NCBI RefSeq assembly: GCF_944388875.1
Contig: NZ_CALXKQ010000011.1
Coordinates: 13,073-77,072, forward strand
From: an uncultured Brachyspira sp.
GTDB taxonomy: Bacteria; Spirochaetota; Brachyspiria; Brachyspirales; Brachyspiraceae
Direction: 5' to 3'
Length of the DNA: 64,000 bases
The translations under genes and the position numbers were made by a program. Shown piece by piece: positions 27,267 through 58,743 of this stretch (positions are counted from its first letter, which is position 1; each line of letters starts with the position of its first letter). The notes beneath the pieces were generated by a model. The model was given only the letters and a program-made list of their open reading frames with translations, did not search any database and was not told the origin of the DNA.

Positions 27267-28340
27267 ATGCCTAAATTATTAATATCAAGCGATCTTCATC
27301 TCAGCATACAAGAAAAAGAATATTCACTTTCTGTACTGGATGAAATAATAGAACATGCCAAAGATTATGATGCTTTACTTCTTCTTGGAGATACTTTTAA
27401 TACTTTTGAAGATTTGCAGGAACTTAAAGATATTTTTTCTCAAAAATTAGAAAATTATCAAAAAAATGTGCTGCTTCTCAAAGGCAACCATGAAAACCTA
27501 AAATCAAAAGGCATTACATTAAATAAATTAAAGTTTCCAAATAATGTTATAGTAATAGAAGACATATCATTTTTCAATGTTGATAATTTGGATATTATAG
27601 CTTTGCCATATAGCGATAAATATATAATAGATAATGAATTAAATAAAAAAATAGAAAATTTAAATGCGTCAAACAGAATAGTTATAGGGCATGGTATAGT
27701 AGAAGGCACATTATGGGCTATAGAAGAAAATGAAGAGCTTGCAATTATACCTATAGATATAATAAAAAAAATAAATCCTAATTTGGCTGCAGTAGGTCAT
27801 ATACATAAACAGATGGAAATAAATATTGACAATATAGAAATAATATATACAGGTTCTGCAAGAATCTGGAGAAAAAGCAAATCAGAAATGGGGGCAAGAA
27901 GATGTTTGGCTCTTGATATACAAGGCTCTTCAATAAATAAAAAGTTTATTGATATTAAATCTGCAGGGGAATACAAGGTTTACGAATATAATATTCAAGG
28001 CATAGATTCAAAATTAGAAGAGGCTTCAAAAAGATGGGATGCAAATGATATTATAGAAATAAATATATACGGCATAGCAGAAGATGAAAATGAAATTGAA
28101 GATAAAAAAAACAATATAAAAAATAAATATTCTAAATATGTACGGGATATAAATATAAAAATTAATGAATTATTTTTATTAGAAAATGCATACAATGAAA
28201 ACATAATAAAAGAATTTATAGATATAGCCGCTGAATATGAATTTGAAACTAATAATGAGGAAGATTTGGAGATAGTTGAGCTTGCAAAACGTTTAGGTAT
28301 AGAAAAAATATCCGCTGCTCTATCAAATAAAAAAAGATAA
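27267..28340 (+). CDS. Mre11/SbcD-like metallophosphoesterase (YhaO-like)
   Basis: SDLH, GDTF, GNHE, GHG, GHIH motifs. Confidence 0.88.
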   Translation: MPKLLISSDLHLSIQEKEYSLSVLDEIIEHAKDYDALLLLGDTFNTFEDLQELKDIFSQKLENYQKNVLLLKGNHENLKSKGITLNKLKFPNNVIVIEDISFFNVDNLDIIALPYSDKYIIDNELNKKIENLNASNRIVIGHGIVEGTLWAIEENEELAIIPIDIIKKINPNLAAVGHIHKQMEINIDNIEIIYTGSARIWRKSKSEMGARRCLALDIQGSSINKKFIDIKSAGEYKVYEYNIQGIDSKLEEASKRWDANDIIEINIYGIAEDENEIEDKKNNIKNKYSKYVRDINIKINELFLLENAYNENIIKEFIDIAAEYEFETNNEEDLEIVELAKRLGIEKISAALSNKKR

Positions 28341-28363: not shown

Positions 28364-30523
28364 ATGATTTTAAATCTAAATAAATTTGGAAAGTTTAAAA
28401 ATAAATCATTTGAAATATCAGACGGACTTACATTATTCTACGGAGAAAATGAGTCTGGAAAAACTACAATATTTGATTCTCTAATGCTTCTTCTCTCAGA
28501 GAATAAAAAAACTTCATCATTTGCCAAACAAATAAAATCAAGATACGGTGATGATATAGATATTTATCTTGAACCAGAAATAGAACCTTCAAAAAAAATG
28601 CATCCTCAGTCATACAATAATCTATATGCTATAAGGCAAAGCGAAATAATATTTGAAATGTCAGACAGCAAAAAAGATTCTAAAGATTGGGAAAGTGAAA
28701 TTAAGAAGAAATTATTTTCTTCGGATATTGATATAGGAAAAATAATATCCGAAATAAAATCCGAATACTCAGGAAAATCTCAAAACTCAATACCTTCTAT
28801 ATTAAAAAATCTTAAATACAGAAAAGAAGAAATCAAAGATGAATTAAATGAATTATATTCAAAAGCAAATACAGAAGTTAATAAGAAGGATAATTTAAAA
28901 GAACTGAATGAAGAATACAATAAAAATGATATTCTAATAAAAGAAAAAATAGCAGAGTATACAAAATTAAGCGAAACTATAAATTCACAGAAAAATTCAG
29001 AATTAAAAAATGTAAAACTAGAACTAATAAAGTTAATAACTGACTTCAATAAAAAAGATAAATTCTTAAGCGAAAACATATACTTAAAAGAAGATCATTC
29101 TCCTAAAATAAATGATATAACTAAAAAAATAGAAGATTCCCAAAATAATATATCATATATTAATGGAAAAATAGAAGCTCTAAAAAAATCAGAAGAGGAA
29201 AAGAATAATACTGATTATGAAAGCAGAAAAATCAGAATAGACAGGGCAATAAAAAAAATAGATGATTTAATTAAAAAAAATTATAAAATACCAAAAGCAG
29301 TTTTTTTAGGTATTATTGTTATTATAGCATCATTTCTTAGTTTTTATTTTAAAAATCCGTATTGGTTTTTAATAATACTGCCTTCTATACCATTTATGTT
29401 TATAAAAGATTCAAATAATGATAAAACTATAAATGATATATTATATGCTTTGCCTGAACTTAATATAGACAATTACAATTTAGATATTTCATCGCTTAAA
29501 GATATTCTAACAAAAGAATTGGTAAAAATAGAATTGATACTTTCAAAAAATGATGATGAAGAATTAAACAATTATATAAAAGAACTTGAAGATAATATGC
29601 AGAAATTAGAAATATATAATAAAGAATTATCTAATTTTTTTAGAAAGATTAATGTAAGGGATAAAGAAAATTATTATGAAATAAAAAGCGATTATGATTC
29701 TGTTTATAAGAGTACAGAAGAATTATTTTCAAAACTAATGACAGAAGCAAAAAAATTAGGATTTAAAGATATAGCCACATTAGAGGCTGATTGTTTTAGA
29801 GTTTTAAAAGAACTTGATGATAAGGGAATAAATCCAGAAACTTTTAATGAAATGGAATTAAGAAACCTTGAAAACAGATTAAAAGAACTTGAGAAAGAAA
29901 TAAAATATATAGAAAACAACATGAATAAAATACTATCCAATATGTCCTATATCAAAGGAGAACTCAGCAGTGCAGATGATGTTCACAGCAATATAATAGA
30001 ACTTGAAAGCGAATTAAAGAAGAATGATGAAGAAATAAAGGAATTAAACAAAAAAAGGAGTGCTTTAGAATTATTAGAAAATATGCTCTCTAAAATAAAT
30101 AAAAAAAATGATGACATATTTGATTCATTATCTAATGAAGCTAAAGTTTTATACAATCATATAACAGGAAAAGATTTATCAGATGATGGAATTATTATGT
30201 CTGGATTTGATAAGAATAAAATCATGGTGAAAGATAAGCAGAATGAAAGCAGAAATGTTGAGCTTCTTTCTTCAGCTACTAAAGATGCTGTTTATATATC
30301 TATGCGTCTTTCTATATTAACTAAAATACATGAGGCTGGAAGATTAATATTATTGGATGATCCTTTTATAACATTTGATAATAACAGAACTAAAGAAGCA
30401 TTATCATTTATAAGGGAATATTCAAAAAAATATAAAATACCTGTGGCAATATTCACAAAAGATATTTTCATAAGAGATACAATGCGTGAATATGAAGAGG
30501 CTGTAATACATGAATTATCTTAA
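28364..30523 (+). CDS. Rad50/SbcC-like coiled-coil ATPase (YhaN-like) with central TM hairpin
   Basis: Walker A GENESGKTT; signature LSSATKD; Walker B ILLDDPF; long coiled coils with a hydrophobic central segment. Confidence 0.85.
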   Translation: MILNLNKFGKFKNKSFEISDGLTLFYGENESGKTTIFDSLMLLLSENKKTSSFAKQIKSRYGDDIDIYLEPEIEPSKKMHPQSYNNLYAIRQSEIIFEMSDSKKDSKDWESEIKKKLFSSDIDIGKIISEIKSEYSGKSQNSIPSILKNLKYRKEEIKDELNELYSKANTEVNKKDNLKELNEEYNKNDILIKEKIAEYTKLSETINSQKNSELKNVKLELIKLITDFNKKDKFLSENIYLKEDHSPKINDITKKIEDSQNNISYINGKIEALKKSEEEKNNTDYESRKIRIDRAIKKIDDLIKKNYKIPKAVFLGIIVIIASFLSFYFKNPYWFLIILPSIPFMFIKDSNNDKTINDILYALPELNIDNYNLDISSLKDILTKELVKIELILSKNDDEELNNYIKELEDNMQKLEIYNKELSNFFRKINVRDKENYYEIKSDYDSVYKSTEELFSKLMTEAKKLGFKDIATLEADCFRVLKELDDKGINPETFNEMELRNLENRLKELEKEIKYIENNMNKILSNMSYIKGELSSADDVHSNIIELESELKKNDEEIKELNKKRSALELLENMLSKINKKNDDIFDSLSNEAKVLYNHITGKDLSDDGIIMSGFDKNKIMVKDKQNESRNVELLSSATKDAVYISMRLSILTKIHEAGRLILLDDPFITFDNNRTKEALSFIREYSKKYKIPVAIFTKDIFIRDTMREYEEAVIHELS

Positions 30524-30705
30524 ACAAAAAGCACTAAGAAAATTAGCTGTATAATTTCAGATATAAAGCAAGATTTTACTGAAAGGCTTATCTGCTGCCA
30601 GAATATCAATATAATTATTCTCTAGGGTAGAAAAATTATATAACATATATTATACTATATATAGCTATATTAAAGTTATGTAAACTATCACTTAGGACTA
30701 AATTC

Positions 30706-33056
30706 ATGAAAAAATACAAACCAGCAACAAAAGAAGAACTCAAAAAATTAGTATTTACTGACGGCATAAAACTTGATTGTGTAGATACTAGTCTTATAAC
30801 GGATATGAGCAAGCTTTTTCATGAAAGTAAAAGGAAAGATTTTGAAGGCATAGAAGATTGGGATGTTTCTAATGTTGAGGATATGTCTTATATGTTTGCA
30901 TATATGGACTTTAATTTTATTTTAGAATTGTCAAGAATAGATTTTAATCCCAATTTAAATAATTGGAATGTATCTAAAGTTAAAAATATGAGTAATATGT
31001 TTGCCTATTGTTCTAATTTTAATCAGCCTTTAAATAATTGGAATATATCTAAAGTTGAAGATTTATCGAATATGTTTAGTTATTCTCATATTTTTAATCA
31101 GCCTCTTAATGATTGGGATGTTTCTAATGTGAAAGACATGAGAGGTATGTTTAAGTTGGCAGAAAGTTTTAATCAGCCTTTGGATAAATGGGATACTTCT
31201 AATGTTGAAAATATGCATGAGATGTTTGTACAATGCAAAGCTTTTAATCAGACTTTAAATAGTTGGAATGTATCTAATGTGAAAAATATGGAAGCTATGT
31301 TTTGTGATACTGTTTCATTTAATAAGCCGCTTGATAAATGGGATACAAAAAACTTAAAAAAATTGACTCAATGTTTAAATATGTTAAAAGCTATAATTGT
31401 TATTACTCATTGGCAAATTGGGATTTAAATAAAATATTAAATATGAGTGATTTATGCGATGATAAAGAAAAATTGCCTTTAAGAATTAGAGCATATCTTC
31501 AGGCATTTTATGGTTCTTATCAAAATTATTTAACTATCACAAAAGATAATGTCAAAGAAGTATATTATTCAATATCAAAAGATACAAATAAAAAAATTGT
31601 AGTATTAAGAAAAAGACTTGAAAGTGATTTTTCTTCAGAACTTTCATCTGTTACTGATGATTATAATTTCAAAACTATAGAAGAAGCAGAAAAGTATCTT
31701 GAAGATAATTATAATAAAAAAGATGATAAAAAAGTAATCTTTATAAATAATAATAATTATAAGGTTTTAATAAAAGATAAATCAAGAGAAGTTAATATTA
31801 ATGTTATAAAGCATATATACTTGGAATATTTGTCTCTTAAAAGAGATGTGAAAAGATTAGTAAAAATTGATAATATGGTTAATTTGCTTGATAAAGAATC
31901 ATTTATAGAGTTTATTAAAAATATTTATGATGAAACTAATAAAGAAGCAGCCGCTTTTATTTATATAATATATGGAGGAGATGAGGCTTTAAAAAATATA
32001 TATAAAAAAGCACATGATACAAAACTTTTACTTATAACAATTAAATTAAATAATCAAAGTAAATATGCACTTAAATTATTATATAAAATATTTATGACTA
32101 CGAAAAAAACAGAAGTTAGAATCGAAGCAGAAAAAATAATTAATGAATTGCTTGAAGAAATGAATATTGATTATACGGAATTTAGATTAAGATATGCTCC
32201 TGATTTCGGATTTAATTCTGAAGGTGAAAAAGCATTGAATAAAAATTATAAATTAATTTTGAATAGTGATTATTCTTTGAGCTTGTTTGATATAAAAAAT
32301 AATAAAGAATTAAAAAAGATTCCTCGAAGCTTTGATGAAAATTTAAAAAAAGAAATAATAAAATTAAGAAAAGAAATAAAAAAGTTTATTAAAAAGAATT
32401 CTAATCTTTTAGCTATTACATTAATAAACGGCAATAAATACAGTTATGATATATTTAAATATATTTTTATTGATAATGTTATGATGAATAGATTTGCTTT
32501 ATCTTTAATATGGAATCTATATGACAAAGATAATACGTTTATAACAACTTTCAGATATTCAGGCGATGGAAGTTATTCAAACTGTGAAGATGAAGAAATA
32601 AAAATTTATGATAATAGTTTTGTCAGTTTAGCAAGTCCCGTAGAAATGGATGATAACACTATAAAGAAATGGAGAAAACAGCTTGAAGATTATGAAATAG
32701 CACAGCCAATAAATCAATTAACAGTTATAAAATTGGATAAAAACAATTTGGAAAAAGAAATAAAAAAAATAAAAAATATAAAGGCAACTTATAGTGCTTT
32801 TAAGTATTTTAGTAAAAAATATGAAATGAATATTAGTAATGTAATCGGATACGATGGTATTGTAACATATGCCTTTACATCAAATGACGGAGATATTTTT
32901 ACTATGACTTCAAAAATTCAAGGAGAATATGATGAGCAAATAAAGATTACCATTGATTTTAAAAAGAGTGAAAACAAAAAAGAGATATGTAAAAGATTTG
33001 TTTATACTTTATTAGTATTAATGATCTGGGATTTTAGATTGACAGATTTATTTTAA
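30706..33056 (+). pseudogene. DUF285-repeat + DUF4132 fusion gene split by a single -1 frameshift (ORFs 30706-31428 and 31338-33056)
   Basis: Joined product is colinear with the intact paralog at 33205-35793; one extra A in the A7 run at 31356-31362 restores WDTKNLKKIDSMFKY. Confidence 0.85.
30850..31380 (+). repeat. Seven ~25-aa DUF285 (BspA-like/PARCEL) coding repeats
   Basis: W[DN][VIT]S[NK]V..M..MF....FNQPL unit repeated; DNA units such as tttaatcagcct...tgggat..ttctaatgt. Confidence 0.85.
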
Positions 33057-33117
33057 TATAAAGACTATACTTTTATTAAAATATATGCTGTATGTAAAAA
33101 ATAATATATAATTAATT

Positions 33118-33146
33118 TTGACAAATAGTATTTAATTTAGTATAGT
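33118..33146 (+). promoter_or_regulatory. sigma70 promoter for the second DUF285-DUF4132 gene
   Basis: TTGACA, 17 nt, TATAGT. Confidence 0.6.
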
Positions 33147-33204
33147 ATAATACCATATATACATGTATTAGAATTATTTAAACTTATTATTAGGATATAA
33201 GATT

Positions 33205-35793
33205 ATGAAAAAATATAAGCCAAAAACAAAAACGGAATTAAAAAAACTAGTATTTACTGACGGTATAAAACTTTATGATGTTGATACAAGTCTTATTACA
33301 GATATGAGCAAACTTTTTTATGAAAGTAAAAGAAAAGATTTTGAAGGAATAGAAGGTTGGGAAACTTCTAATGTTACAAATATGGATATGATGTTTGCCT
33401 ATATGGGCTATAATGCGTTGGTAAGATATTCAAATATAGATTTTAATCCTGATTTAAGCAGTTGGAATGTATCTAAAGTAAAAAGTATGAATAATATGTT
33501 TACTCATTGTTCTAATTTTAATCAGCCTCTTGATAAATGGGACGTTTCTAATGTTGAAGATATGTCATTTATATTTTATGGTGCAAATGAGTTTAATCAG
33601 CCTTTAAATAACTGGAATGTATCAAAAGTTAAAAATATGCGAGGCATGTTTCAGGAATGTGAAAACTTTAATCAGCCTTTGAATAAATGGGACACTTCTA
33701 ATGTTGAAGATATGTCTAATATGTTTACTCGTGCAAAAGTTTTTAATAAGCCTTTAAATAAATGGAATACTTCTAAAGTTAAAGATTTATCAAGTATGTT
33801 TGCATATTGTGATGTTTTTAATCAGAATCTTAATGATTGGGATGTTTCTAATGTTACAAATATGGATTCTTTGTTTAGGCAATGCGAAAAATTAAATCAG
33901 CCTTTTGATAAATGGGACACTTCTAATGTTGTAAACATGGAAAAGACATTTTTCTCATGCATGAAATTTAATCAGCCTTTAAATAGTTGGAATGTATCTA
34001 ATGTAGAAAATATGGATATGATGTTTTATATGGCTCAAAGTTTTAATCAGCCTCTTGATAAATGGGATACACAAAAACTAATCACTGCTGCAGGACTATT
34101 TAGATTTGCTTATAAATATGATTGTTATGAATCTTTAGAAAATTGGAATTTAGATAATTTAGAAGAAGTTGGTACTTTTTGCGATGATGAAGATAAGTTA
34201 CATACAAGACTTAAAGTATATATGCAAGCCTTTTATCCTAAAGAAGATTATATAACTATAACAAAATTTAATGTTAAAGAAATATATAATCTTATTGCAA
34301 AAGATAAAAATAAAAGAATTGTAAGATTAAGAAAAAGAATTGAAAGTGATTTCTCATCAGAGCTTTCATTTGTTACAAAAGATTATAATTTCAAAACTAT
34401 AGAAAAAGTAGAAAAGTACGCTCAAAAAAAATATAATCCCAAAAAAGAAGATAAAAAACTTGATTTTATAAAGGATTGTCATGTTCTAATAAAAGATAAA
34501 TCAAGAGAAGTAGATATTACAGTGATAAAGTATATATATTCAGAGTATTTATCTTTGAAAAGAACAATTAACAGATTAGAAAAAATTGATAATATAGTTA
34601 ATTTGCTTGATTTTGAATCATTTTTAAAGTTCATTAGAGAAATTTATTTAGAAAATCAAAACACAGAGATTGCAGGTTTTATTTATGCTATGTACGGAGG
34701 AGATGAAGCTTTAAAAGAGATATCTGAATTGATATTATTAGGTATTGATTCAAAAGTTTTCCTTATAATGATAAAATTCAATATAGAAAGCAGATATGCT
34801 CAGAGTTTATTATATGAAATATATTCAGATACAAAGAAAACCGAAGTTCGCAAAGAAGCTGGAAAAATGATTAATGAATTACTTGAAAAAATGAATATAG
34901 GTTATACTGAATTTCGATTAAGATGTACACCTAATTACGGATTTAATTCTCAAGGTGAAAAAATATTAAACGATGATTATAAATTAATTGTTAATAATGA
35001 TTATACTTTGAGCTTTTTTAATATAAAAGATAATAAAGAATTAAAAAAGATTCCTCAAAACTTTGATGAAAAACTAAAAGAAGAAGTAAAAGAATTAAAA
35101 AAAGAAATACCAAAGTTTATTAATCATAGTGCTAGTATTTTAAGTATTACATTAATAGATGGTAATATATACAGCTATGATTTGTTTAAAGAAGTTTTTA
35201 TTGATAATTATTTAATGAATAGATTTGCATCTTCTTTAATATGGAACTTGTATGACAAAGATAAAAACTTCATAACAACTTTTAGATATTCAAATGATGG
35301 AAGCTATTCAAATTCTGATGATGAAGAAGTAAAAATTAATTCTGACAATTTTATAAGTTTGGCAACCCCCGAAGAAATGGATAATAAAACCATAGATAAA
35401 TGGAGAAAACATCTTGAGAATTATGAATTAGTACAGCCAATAAATCAATTAACACTTGTAAAATTAGATAAAAAGAATTTGAAAAAAGAAATAAAAAAGA
35501 TAAAAAATATAGAGGCAAGTTACGGAGCTTTTAAGGCTTTTGCTAAAAGATATGATATGTATACAAATGATGCATTAGGATATAATGATACTATAACATA
35601 TACATTTCCTGCAAATGACGGAGATATTTTCACAATGTCTGCAAAAGTGGATGCCGATATAGAATATGATGAGCCAGTAGATATAAATATTGATTTTAAA
35701 AAGAGTGAAAATAAAAAAGAAATCAGTAAAAGATTCGTTTATACTTTTTTGGTATTTATAATTTGTGATTTTAGATTGACAGATAATTTCTAA
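33205..35793 (+). CDS. DUF285 (BspA-like) repeat protein with C-terminal DUF4132 domain
   Basis: Ten W.vSnV..M..MF repeats; C-terminal PNYGFNSQG...SLIW...FRYSNDG...WRKHLENYELVQPINQL matches the DUF4132 pattern; no signal peptide. Confidence 0.85.
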   Translation: MKKYKPKTKTELKKLVFTDGIKLYDVDTSLITDMSKLFYESKRKDFEGIEGWETSNVTNMDMMFAYMGYNALVRYSNIDFNPDLSSWNVSKVKSMNNMFTHCSNFNQPLDKWDVSNVEDMSFIFYGANEFNQPLNNWNVSKVKNMRGMFQECENFNQPLNKWDTSNVEDMSNMFTRAKVFNKPLNKWNTSKVKDLSSMFAYCDVFNQNLNDWDVSNVTNMDSLFRQCEKLNQPFDKWDTSNVVNMEKTFFSCMKFNQPLNSWNVSNVENMDMMFYMAQSFNQPLDKWDTQKLITAAGLFRFAYKYDCYESLENWNLDNLEEVGTFCDDEDKLHTRLKVYMQAFYPKEDYITITKFNVKEIYNLIAKDKNKRIVRLRKRIESDFSSELSFVTKDYNFKTIEKVEKYAQKKYNPKKEDKKLDFIKDCHVLIKDKSREVDITVIKYIYSEYLSLKRTINRLEKIDNIVNLLDFESFLKFIREIYLENQNTEIAGFIYAMYGGDEALKEISELILLGIDSKVFLIMIKFNIESRYAQSLLYEIYSDTKKTEVRKEAGKMINELLEKMNIGYTEFRLRCTPNYGFNSQGEKILNDDYKLIVNNDYTLSFFNIKDNKELKKIPQNFDEKLKEEVKELKKEIPKFINHSASILSITLIDGNIYSYDLFKEVFIDNYLMNRFASSLIWNLYDKDKNFITTFRYSNDGSYSNSDDEEVKINSDNFISLATPEEMDNKTIDKWRKHLENYELVQPINQLTLVKLDKKNLKKEIKKIKNIEASYGAFKAFAKRYDMYTNDALGYNDTITYTFPANDGDIFTMSAKVDADIEYDEPVDINIDFKKSENKKEISKRFVYTFLVFIICDFRLTDNF
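33350..34110 (+). repeat. Ten ~25-aa DUF285 coding repeats
   Basis: Repeated FNQPL[DN]KW[DN][VT]S[NK]V units at ~75-nt period. Confidence 0.85.
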
Positions 35794-56871: not shown

Positions 56872-58743
56872 ATGAATAAAAATATTAAAGTAAATATAAA
56901 CTCAAATATTTTAAGATATAAAAATATATTGGCTATACCTTCTATACATTCAAGGGTATATTTTTCTATGGCTGTAAGAGAGGCTTTTGAAGAGTTTAAA
57001 CCAGATATCATAGCTGTTGAGCATCCTGCTAATTTTACCGATTCATTGCGTGAAGCTGTAAGCAGACTTCCTTTTATAAGTTTAATTATAAGAGAAATAA
57101 ATAATGAAGCTGTATATATACCTATAGATCCTTGCGATTCTATAATAGAAGCTGTTAGGCTTGCAATAGATGAAGAGATTCCATTCTTTCCTATTGATAA
57201 AGATATTACTTCAATTAATTCTAATTCGCATTATCTTATGCCTGATGATTATGTTATGAAAAGTATAGGGCTTGAAAAATTTTATGAAGAGGTAAAATCA
57301 AAATATATATTCCATAAAGATTATACAGATGAAGAGCGGGAAATATATATGGCTAAAAATCTGCATGAACTATCAAAAAAATATAATAAAATTCTTCTTG
57401 TTATAGGTATGTCCCATTGGGAGAATATGGTTTCTATTCTAAAGAGATTGGATGAAAAAAAAGAAATAAAAGAGTATATAAATAAAAGTAATGATGATGA
57501 ATATGAAGAACCTAAAATATACAATGTACATAAAGAATCTTTAAATAAGATGCTTGGAGAGTTTCCATTTACAACGTATATGTATGAACTATACAGAAAT
57601 GGAGAATTAGAAAACTTTGATAAAATAAATATAATAGAAACAATATTCAGAGAAGCAAAATTAAGATATAAACTTCCTATATCAATACTTCAGCAGAAGA
57701 ATATGATGAAATATTTGAGAAATTTATGCCTTCTTGATAATTATATAATACCTGATTATATAGATATGCTCACAGCAGCTAAATGTATGATAAATAATGA
57801 TTATGCTTTGGAAGTTATGCAGGGAATGGAATACTATCCGCATTATAATGAAGAGGATGAAAACTATCCTACCATAAAATTAAACAGAGATCCTAGTACA
57901 AATGGTATGGAGGGTTTGCTTAAAGATAAAAAAATAAAACTTCATCAGTATGATAATGTATGGAAAACTTCTTTTAAGCAGGTTCATGTTACAACGCGTC
58001 CTAGAGAAAAGTATGATGGAGAATGGGAGGATGTTTGGAATAAGAGAACCAATTTACTTTCCCATGTTCCTGAAGACATACTTATGGAAAAACACATGAA
58101 TATACTTAGGGACAAAATAAGAAACATGCTTACAGAAGATAAAGCAAAAATTGAACCGTTTACAGTGAGTATAAAAGACGGTATTGATATGCGTGAAACT
58201 ATAAGAAATTATTATAAAAATGAAATATATGTTAAAGAGATTCCTAAAATCAAAGGAAATATAGGACACATGGTTGTTATTTTTGATGATGAACATGATG
58301 ATGATTATGATTGGAATATAGTATGGTACAGCGAAGCACATGATGACAGCGATTTAATACTATATTCTACAGAACCAGGAAATACTCTTGTAGGACCTGG
58401 AATATCTAAATGCTATTTCGGAGGATATGCTTCTTTAATGCCGCCTCAGGCTCCTCATGATGTTTGGAGTATATATACTCAATTAAAAAAAGAAGGTATT
58501 GTAAGAAACTATGCTGATCTTCTGCTTTATACTGCTATAATATATTCTGTGGACAAATATTTAGGCTATGTTGCTCCTACTCCTCCTTCAAGCATATTAA
58601 AAGAGTTTGCAAAACAAAACTCGGTTGAAATAGTCTATGTACCACTAACCACATTTTCAAGCGAAACTCTAAGAAAACTAAGACATTTTCATGTACTTGG
58701 AAATAAGAGGCTTAGAAAAATTGCTGATGATTATATAATATAA
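56872..58743 (+). CDS. Conserved hypothetical protein; TraB/YehM-like N-terminus and CoxE/vWA-like C-terminus
   Basis: IPSIHSR...PDIIAVEHP N-terminus; DGIDMRETIRN...MVVIFD C-terminal segment. Confidence 0.6.
   Translation: MNKNIKVNINSNILRYKNILAIPSIHSRVYFSMAVREAFEEFKPDIIAVEHPANFTDSLREAVSRLPFISLIIREINNEAVYIPIDPCDSIIEAVRLAIDEEIPFFPIDKDITSINSNSHYLMPDDYVMKSIGLEKFYEEVKSKYIFHKDYTDEEREIYMAKNLHELSKKYNKILLVIGMSHWENMVSILKRLDEKKEIKEYINKSNDDEYEEPKIYNVHKESLNKMLGEFPFTTYMYELYRNGELENFDKINIIETIFREAKLRYKLPISILQQKNMMKYLRNLCLLDNYIIPDYIDMLTAAKCMINNDYALEVMQGMEYYPHYNEEDENYPTIKLNRDPSTNGMEGLLKDKKIKLHQYDNVWKTSFKQVHVTTRPREKYDGEWEDVWNKRTNLLSHVPEDILMEKHMNILRDKIRNMLTEDKAKIEPFTVSIKDGIDMRETIRNYYKNEIYVKEIPKIKGNIGHMVVIFDDEHDDDYDWNIVWYSEAHDDSDLILYSTEPGNTLVGPGISKCYFGGYASLMPPQAPHDVWSIYTQLKKEGIVRNYADLLLYTAIIYSVDKYLGYVAPTPPSSILKEFAKQNSVEIVYVPLTTFSSETLRKLRHFHVLGNKRLRKIADDYII

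Follow-up and report, generated by a model that had tools for sequence, protein, structure and literature searches.

Tandem DUF285-DUF4132 fusion paralogues of Brachyspira as candidate cytoplasmic adaptors for a dispersed Yeh-type MoxR-vWA system

Introduction

In Escherichia coli K-12, the DUF4132 gene yehI stands in a cluster whose annotated order is yehF (WGR)-yehH (pseudogene)-yehI (DUF4132)-yehK-yehL (MoxR)-yehM-yehP (VWA)-yehQ (SWIM). A Leptospira-like spirochaete shows the same gene order, and Bacteroides thetaiotaomicron, too, has a Yeh-type MoxR-vWA gene set; literature searches on DUF4132, the yeh genes and DUF5682 found no functional study. Here we describe two tandem paralogues, copy 1 and copy 2, in which DUF285 repeats are fused to a DUF4132 module. 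They lie on the same strand, copy 1 first, at 30706-35793 of a 64,000-nucleotide (nt) stretch of an uncultured Brachyspira sp. genome (contig NZ_CALXKQ010000011.1, positions 13,073 to 77,072; this whole stretch is hereafter the window). The architecture is already in databases, and none of the literature searched describes a DUF285-DUF4132 fusion.

In RavA-ViaA, CbbQ-CbbO, NorQ-NorD and CoxD-CoxE, a MoxR ATPase acts on specific clients via adaptor subunits. Like these MoxR-vWA chaperone pairs, the source genome encodes an AAA_5 MoxR ATPase and a VWA_CoxE protein; the pairs, however, have no counterpart of the extra DUF5682, SWIM and DUF4132 subunits. The comparison with the DUF4132 proteins YehI and YehH/MolR of the E. 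coli yeh cluster is closer, as all four partner families are also present in the source genome, DUF4132 forms several paralogues in both organisms, and the C-terminal ~410 residues of YehI are homologous to the module of the two copies. DUF285/PARCEL repeats replace the WGR/HEAT N-terminal region of YehI/MolR in the copies, and, unlike in E. coli, the ten DUF4132 loci of the source genome stand outside any operon with core genes.

The repeats, too, have described relatives. The PARCEL lipoproteins of Mycoplasma and Listeria (PF03382, TIGR02167; Roske et al. 2010, PMC2996958) share with copies 1 and 2 a repeat family of 25-26 amino acids (aa) and variable hydrophilic positions over a conserved scaffold. 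Unlike those surface lipoproteins, both copies lack a lipoprotein signal or membrane anchor and have their repeats fused to a module of a cytoplasmic system; they correspond to the 'untargeted' class left unexplained in that study. Leptospira proteins of the LIC_12901 type (leucine-rich repeats (LRRs) + WGR + DUF4132; PMC11674859) resemble the copies in that leucine-rich-type repeats are fused to DUF4132 without a signal peptide. They differ in carrying classical LRRs at the C terminus, in their length (1356-1656 aa), and in being single-copy within a WGR-DUF4132-MoxR-DUF5682-VWA operon. Together with their counterpart at locus L051, described below, they represent an independent fusion of a repeat binding domain to DUF4132.

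Results and discussion

Two paralogues of one architecture

Copy 2 is an intact open reading frame (ORF) of 862 aa at 33205-35793 on the + strand, composed of ten DUF285/PARCEL repeats, a helical domain and DUF4132, and is the intact, selected member of the pair. Copy 1 (30706-33056) consists of two overlapping ORFs of 240 aa and 572 aa, the second in the -1 frame. An earlier note, made from the letters of the window, had placed two tandem paralogues at exactly 30706-35793; the position stood, but its account of copy 1 as one gene did not. The parts of the two copies are as follows.

30706-31428, + strand: copy 1, frame-0 ORF of 240 aa; polar N-cap and seven DUF285/PARCEL units, with a stop after the frameshift
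31338-33056, + strand: copy 1, -1-frame ORF of 572 aa; cap unit, helical domain, DUF4132 core and C-terminal alpha/beta domain
33205-34209, + strand: copy 2, residues 1-335; polar N-cap, ten PARCEL units of 25 aa and cap unit (Pfam, TIGR02167; AlphaFold2 (AF2) per-residue confidence, pLDDT, mostly >90)
34210-35034, + strand: copy 2, residues 336-610; all-helical (HEAT-like) domain and beta-hairpin region (AF2; representative matches, YehI alignment)
35035-35451, + strand: copy 2, residues 611-749; DUF4132 core (Pfam E 4.4e-22, 79 bits against a 27-bit cut-off; alignments A1-A3)
35452-35793, + strand: copy 2, residues 750-862 and stop codon; C-terminal alpha/beta domain (AF2)

Both domains were found by Pfam in both copies. 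DUF285 (PF03382) was matched at E 2.5e-77 in the 240-aa piece of copy 1 and at E 5.1e-113 in copy 2, and DUF4132 (PF13569) at E 1.9e-21 in the 572-aa piece and at E 4.4e-22 in copy 2; the DUF4132 scores (77.2 bits for copy 1 and 79.3 bits for copy 2) lie above the curated cut-off of 27. The DUF285 units are named PARCEL repeats by NCBIfam TIGR02167 (E 1.7e-34). Their period is strictly 25 aa and tryptophan-anchored, with seven units in copy 1 and ten in copy 2, and one degenerate cap unit closes each array. These repeat counts, the two domains and the strings YMFA/NMFS/GMFK and MMFA/FIFY/GMFQ had all been read correctly in the earlier note, as had the near-identical N-termini, since the first 50 residues of the two copies are ~90% identical compared with ~64% overall. 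Its picture of a conserved output domain behind a divergent sensor was not borne out, as the C-terminal domain (63.8% identical between the copies) is no better conserved than the repeats (63.6%). Nor are the genes a sensor and its effector: both are paralogues of one architecture, and neither Pfam nor the AF2 models revealed an NTPase, a nuclease or any other effector domain in either copy.

AF2 modelled both the module (pLDDT 89.4, predicted template modelling score (pTM) 0.82) and full-length copy 2 (pLDDT 89.8, pTM 0.72) with high confidence. In the full-length model, a solenoid to which each repeat unit contributes one short strand is followed by an all-helical domain, a beta-hairpin region with a long helix, the alpha/beta DUF4132 core and a last alpha/beta domain. 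Foldseek searches, which had been proposed for the DUF4132 model, gave no significant relative: with the module and full-length models, no match below E 0.04 was found in the PDB, and none below E 0.03 in the viral predictions of BFVD. Searching the PDB by sequence yielded no relative, and searching it by profile only alphaRep/HEAT-like noise. For the C-terminal alpha/beta domain, the only fold matches, with KA1, appendage and BamC-N-like platform domains, were weak, local and non-significant. Nothing resembling an enzyme fold or motif was recognised.

The C-terminal module belongs to a Yeh-type gene set

When a profile of the module was compared with E. coli YehI, hhalign returned a probability of 100% (E 2.6e-44) over 411 columns covering YehI residues 748-1161. 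By this comparison, the C-terminal ~440 residues of the fusions are homologous to the C-terminal third of YehI, and, with the E. coli gene order, the link to the yeh/molR MoxR-vWA set made in the earlier note is supported. Representative relatives of the module number 1638; most are 1050-1200 aa long and have the module at the C terminus. DUF4132 was present in all 46 relatives sampled, DUF285 in 6/46, HEAT_2 in 6/46 and WGR in 2/46. Residues 336-610 of copy 2 form part of the module common to the 1050-1200 aa DUF4132 proteins: representative matches align from about module residue 90 on, and hhalign to YehI from module residue 121. Within the DUF4132 core, K611, K614, P617, K633, N668, W680, F693-R-Y695, D698, W733, D739 and Q748 are near-invariant (alignments A1-A3).

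Among spirochaetes, the gene set is found in several states of assembly. Locus L051 (5585-9655) encodes a DUF4132 protein with classical C-terminal LRRs, which matches the published LIC_12901 architecture (PMC11674859), within a complete WGR-WGR-DUF4132-MoxR-DUF5682-VWA-(SWIM-like) operon. A sister genus of Brachyspira keeps a MoxR-DUF5682-VWA operon. In the source genome (G000), four Yeh-core homologues were found, each in single copy and each standing alone among unrelated genes:

C9:87329-88399: MoxR (YehL-type) homologue
C2:13555-14700: VWA_CoxE (YehP-type) homologue
C31:7660-10107: DUF5682 (YehM-type) homologue
C9:44688-46397: SWIM (YehQ-type) homologue

The multi-subunit Yeh system is thus fully dispersed in the source genome and operonic in the sister genus and the Leptospira-like genome. 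We then compared the occurrence of the two families in 201 Spirochaetota genomes from 92 genera. DUF4132 is present in 44 genomes of five genera and DUF5682 in 39 genomes of four genera; every one of the 39 DUF5682 genomes carries DUF4132 as well, and DUF5682 is absent from all 157 genomes that lack DUF4132. At the genus level, DUF5682 occurs in 4/5 genera with DUF4132 and 0/87 without it (Fisher probability about 2e-6).

Variable repeat positions are conserved within paralogue groups

All named database homologues of the DUF285-DUF4132 fusion are from Brachyspira. The source genome has ten DUF4132 loci and about ten DUF285 loci, five of the latter being fusions, and four other DUF4132 paralogues keep a long helical N-terminus. 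Across 35 Brachyspira species genomes, module matches range from 1 to 20 per genome; where there is just one, it is a gene of ~470 aa that consists of the module alone. A tree of 65 full-length fusions resolved five well-supported orthologous groups of near-fixed length (857, about 802, 795-797, 860-869 and 862-863 aa), inside each of which the repeat number is also near-fixed. The variable repeat number seen in the earlier note thus turned out to be a fixed difference between old paralogue groups and not ongoing variation.

Selection tests compared species representatives. The copy-2 orthologues (n = 13, 12 species) are 82-93% identical, and their ratio of nonsynonymous to synonymous substitution rates (dN/dS) is 0.13 in the N-cap, 0.19 in the repeats, 0.22 in the helical domain, 0.24 in the DUF4132 core and 0.15 in the tail. 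Within the repeats of these 13 orthologues, the seven variable positions have a dN/dS of 0.40 and the scaffold positions 0.11. The earlier note had proposed a diversifying sensor; what was found instead, purifying selection (0.19 for the repeats overall) and near-fixed repeat number, is the result that the note itself had named as speaking against its idea. At the variable positions, identity is 80-86% inside an orthologous group and 18-24% between groups, compared with 93-99% and 77-78% for scaffold positions. As the variable positions are conserved within groups and almost unrelated between them, the repeat surfaces appear to have diverged once, long ago, and then been held. The variable positions look like a paralogue-specific surface, and the selection pattern is, as far as these comparisons go, that of paralogues with distinct stable partners rather than of an arms race.

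A proposed adaptor role for a Yeh-type machine, and the alternatives

In the fusions, a PARCEL solenoid stands where YehI/MolR-type DUF4132 proteins usually have a WGR/HEAT region. We read them as paralogous cytoplasmic adaptors, each of fixed specificity, that would serve a Yeh-type MoxR-vWA machine, an interpretation to which we give about an even chance. In this model, which draws on the analogy with MoxR-vWA pairs that act on specific clients, each paralogue would be a cytoplasmic adaptor. Its repeat face would bind one stable partner, either cellular or conserved foreign, while the DUF4132 module would dock the paralogue to a single MoxR-DUF5682-vWA-SWIM machine, and one ATPase could thereby serve many interchangeable recognition subunits. 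Single-copy core genes, a DUF4132 subunit multiplied with an exchanged front end, and a conserved surface particular to each paralogue together argue for the variable end as the recognition module and the DUF4132 end as the common docking module.

Several observations weigh against this model. Because there is no gene adjacency in Brachyspira, the link to the Yeh machine is one of homology and phyletic co-occurrence only, and the co-occurrence spans four genera, which are not independent samples. In the models, the fold is one without a solved or viral-predicted relative to guide function, and literature searches turned up no DUF4132 protein with a known physical interaction, ligand or phenotype. 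Two further points, that 0/10 DUF4132 loci in the source genome adjoin a Yeh-core gene and that five Spirochaetota genomes have DUF4132 without DUF5682, so that the module can exist without it, also favour a stand-alone activity of DUF4132. Such an activity might be nucleic-acid or small-molecule binding, or regulation, with the scattered MoxR, DUF5682, VWA and SWIM genes working separately. The odd stoichiometry of ten DUF4132 loci to single-copy core genes fits this alternative, and the near-invariant K611, K614, K633, N668, R694, D698, D739 and Q748 could form a binding or catalytic site. We nevertheless consider it unlikely, given the strict genus-level co-occurrence of DUF5682 and DUF4132 (4/5 against 0/87), an operon conserved in E. 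coli and the Leptospira-like spirochaete, the MoxR-DUF5682-VWA operon of the sister genus, and the lack of similarity to any enzyme fold.

The fusions could also be immune-like intracellular sensors, as the earlier note had proposed in the form of an anti-phage receptor, with repeats that recognise phage or foreign molecules and signal via DUF4132, possibly through the MoxR-vWA machine, to stop infection. This alternative is compatible with the adaptor model if the Yeh machine is itself a defence system. Several features of the family are of the expected kind, among them the lineage-specific expansion in tandem arrays (1 to about 20 copies per genome), the frequency of truncated or frameshifted members, the swapping of repeat blocks by recombination between paralogues, the apparently paralogue-specific variable surfaces, signs of segment exchange between species (see below) and the parallel LRR fusion in the Leptospira-like genome. 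The Pfam bpMoxR model is, moreover, named for 'MoxR-vWA-beta-propeller ternary systems'; spirochaete YehL-type ATPases scored 25.8 and 29 bits against it (cut-off 27) and were reported as below cut-off. Against these stand the absence of any PADLOC family for both copies, purifying selection that includes the variable positions, a repeat number fixed within orthologous groups, and a protein with neither an NTPase switch nor an effector domain. Housekeeping genes make up the flanks (besides the pair described below: ogg, hom, recO), and the module has no phage homologue and, in plasmid records, one weak match to a Bacillus megaplasmid; on the same two results a mobile-element origin was rejected. 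The only published regulatory links of relatives tie E. coli molR to LexA and Deinococcus DRA0166 to DdrO (PMC8533742), and thus to the response to DNA damage and not to phage. None of the specific tests spoke for an immune role, and on balance it is improbable.

A broader proposal is that the Yeh-type MoxR-DUF5682-vWA-SWIM machine is a cytoplasmic surveillance system with interchangeable DUF4132 receptors, for which Brachyspira would hold a germline repertoire and which Leptospira would have equipped independently with LRRs. This we regard as speculative and rather doubtful. If it were true, the repertoire would comprise up to about 20 genes per genome with five or more fixed specificities, built by swapping PARCEL arrays onto the DUF4132 docking module and renewed as tandem paralogues recombine and species exchange genes.

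Copy 1 is frameshifted as sequenced and of recombinant origin

Two further features mark copy 1.

31356-31362, + strand: A7 tract, the site of a 1-nt deletion (sequence; orthologues have A8)
30706-31245, + strand: recombinant 5' segment, from an 'E-type' repeat-only paralogue, with the crossover at roughly 31185-31245

Copy 1 is split because it is 1 nt short in a homopolymer (A7 versus A8), with gat aca aaa aac tta aaa aaa ttg as the frame-0 sequence across the junction; in other Brachyspira species, 8/8 copy 1 orthologues have A8 and a continuous ORF of 795-797 aa. The 572-aa frame has a dN/dS of 0.28 against the orthologues, equal to the value among them. As this frame is free of relaxed selection, the break should be of recent date, be rescued by slippage or stem from the assembly. 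The contig of a 98%-identical relative ends 740 nt upstream of copy 2.

Along its 5' segment, copy 1 is 85-98% identical in windows to the E-type genes of other species and less similar to copy-1 orthologues; 3' of the crossover it is mostly 92-97% identical to copy-1 orthologues. By these affinities, copy 1 is a recombinant of an E-type 5' end and a copy-1-type 3' body. The E-type genes (loci L032-L040, L046 and L049; for example L034:13934-15097 and L036:12087-13274) are repeat-only DUF285 genes of 387-404 aa that end ~80 residues into the helical domain. They adjoin the copy-2 orthologue in at least ten species and are under purifying selection (dN/dS 0.29), and they look like selected truncated forms, not debris.

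As sequenced, copy 1 would encode a 240-aa repeat-only protein, and the full-length form would arise only via slippage. A more elaborate possibility is that copy 1 is expressed through programmed -1 frameshifting or transcriptional slippage, giving the 240-aa protein and the full-length fusion in a set ratio. The A7 run in frame 0 reads tt-A AAA AAA-ttg, which has, formally, the X XXY YYZ pattern and the right phase for a slippery heptamer; 9 nt further upstream there is another heptamer, A AAA AAC. The unrelaxed selection on the downstream ORF would also fit, and the short product could be useful, as the conserved and selected E-type genes indicate. Programmed frameshifting is not our default reading, however, because the shift is not conserved (8/8 orthologues have A8 and a single ORF). 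The nearest relatives lack the copy-1 paralogue group altogether, and in another family member of the genome the break is a deletion outside homopolymers. With 1062 A8/T8 runs in the genome, this A-tract is not special, and the A7 may be a sequencing error. A programmed event therefore has only a slim chance.

Broken genes were seen elsewhere in the family. A second broken DUF285-DUF4132 gene of the source genome (G000 contig C7:61452-63837) has frames of 440 aa and 373 aa separated by a non-homopolymer deletion, and at locus L050 (G012:C32:37000-52000) all that is left of the cluster is five or six decayed pieces of 189-633 aa. The DUF285-DUF4132 family thus loses genes often.

The history of copy 2 is discordant with that of its upstream neighbour, an SMC/Rad50-like ATPase gene, when 33205-35793 is compared with 28364-30523 of the window (loci L034, L036, L037 and L039). 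Copy 2 shares 92-93% identity with its orthologues in G004, G010 and G008, although the ATPases there are only 73-74% identical, and 88% with the orthologue of G026, though the ATPase of G026 is 91% identical. The tree groups copy 2 with the G004/G010/G008 set (support 99), and the order 'E-type gene directly upstream of D' matches the same set. This pattern suggests an exchange of the E-D segment among species of Brachyspira.

Localisation

The N-terminus of the copies is polar (mean hydropathy -0.94 across residues 1-25), and a simple hydropathy and lipobox scan, in agreement with the earlier note, found no signal peptide, lipobox or transmembrane-grade segment, the maximal 19-residue hydropathy of 1.76 lying in a charged helix. 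Every DUF285 protein read from the source genome shares the same untargeted N-cap, and by these features copies 1 and 2 look cytoplasmic. That they are instead surface or secreted BspA-like adhesins exported by a non-classical route would suit the NCBI product name of the homologues ('BspA family leucine-rich repeat surface protein') and the prevalence of DUF285/PARCEL repeats in Mycoplasma and Listeria surface lipoproteins (NCBIfam names; PMC2996958), but is highly improbable given the polar, anchorless N-terminus, the untargeted N-cap throughout the genome, a C-terminal module that belongs to a cytoplasmic MoxR-vWA gene set, and the listing of untargeted ORFs of unknown fate in the PARCEL paper itself (PMC2996958). 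The database name 'surface protein' is probably wrong for the DUF285-DUF4132 family.

Genomic surroundings

Directly upstream of the pair lie two genes that serve here as context, and a promoter-like site lies in the gap before copy 2.

27267-28340, + strand: SbcD/Mre11-like phosphoesterase (Pfam Metallophos)
28364-30523, + strand: SMC/Rad50-like ATPase (Pfam AAA_23/27/29)
33118-33146, + strand: TTGACA-17-TATAGT, the best sigma-70-like match of the region (11/12)

The earlier note had set the pair directly downstream of a nuclease-ATPase pair. The adjacency is real, but it is a lineage-specific rearrangement beside core genes. The ATPase is single-copy in 35/35 Brachyspira species, and its downstream neighbours vary between genomes; a functional link to the nuclease-ATPase pair was rejected on these grounds. 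Elsewhere, family members lie near the phosphoesterase-ATPase pair only in two pilosicoli-like genomes, after a 2-kb spacer. In the two nearest relatives (ATPase 90-91% identical), a cluster A-B-C-D-E is followed by hom and recO, as in the right flank of the window. As the cluster of these relatives lies elsewhere, by hom-recO, the left junction represents a rearrangement in the source lineage. The PADLOC matches of these two upstream genes were all weak, namely LmuB/PtuA-like, which fell to the ATPase, and PDC-S10. The ATPase has a strongly hydrophobic mid-stretch, AVFLGIIVIIASFLSFYFKNPYWFLIILPSIPFMF, with a 19-residue hydropathy of 2.26 from residue 309, which suggests, from its composition, a membrane hairpin.

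The sigma-70-like site at 33118-33146 is only suggestive as a promoter of copy 2, as the total number of promoter-like matches is that expected by chance. The motif TTATGTAAAC occurs at 30677-30686, 20 nt upstream of the copy 1 start codon. A 623-aa ORF at 56872-58743, considered as a YehM/vWA relative, was rejected, having no Pfam match at E <= 0.001; the actual DUF5682 and VWA_CoxE homologues sit on other contigs.

Implications

The fusions provide a first concrete context for the 'untargeted' cytoplasmic PARCEL/DUF285 repeat proteins. Brachyspira offers an unusual natural experiment, in which the core of the Yeh-type system is single-copy and the DUF4132 subunit has been multiplied with a swapped front end. 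If the adaptor model is true, these paralogues would open a way to the clients of the entire Yeh-type machine.

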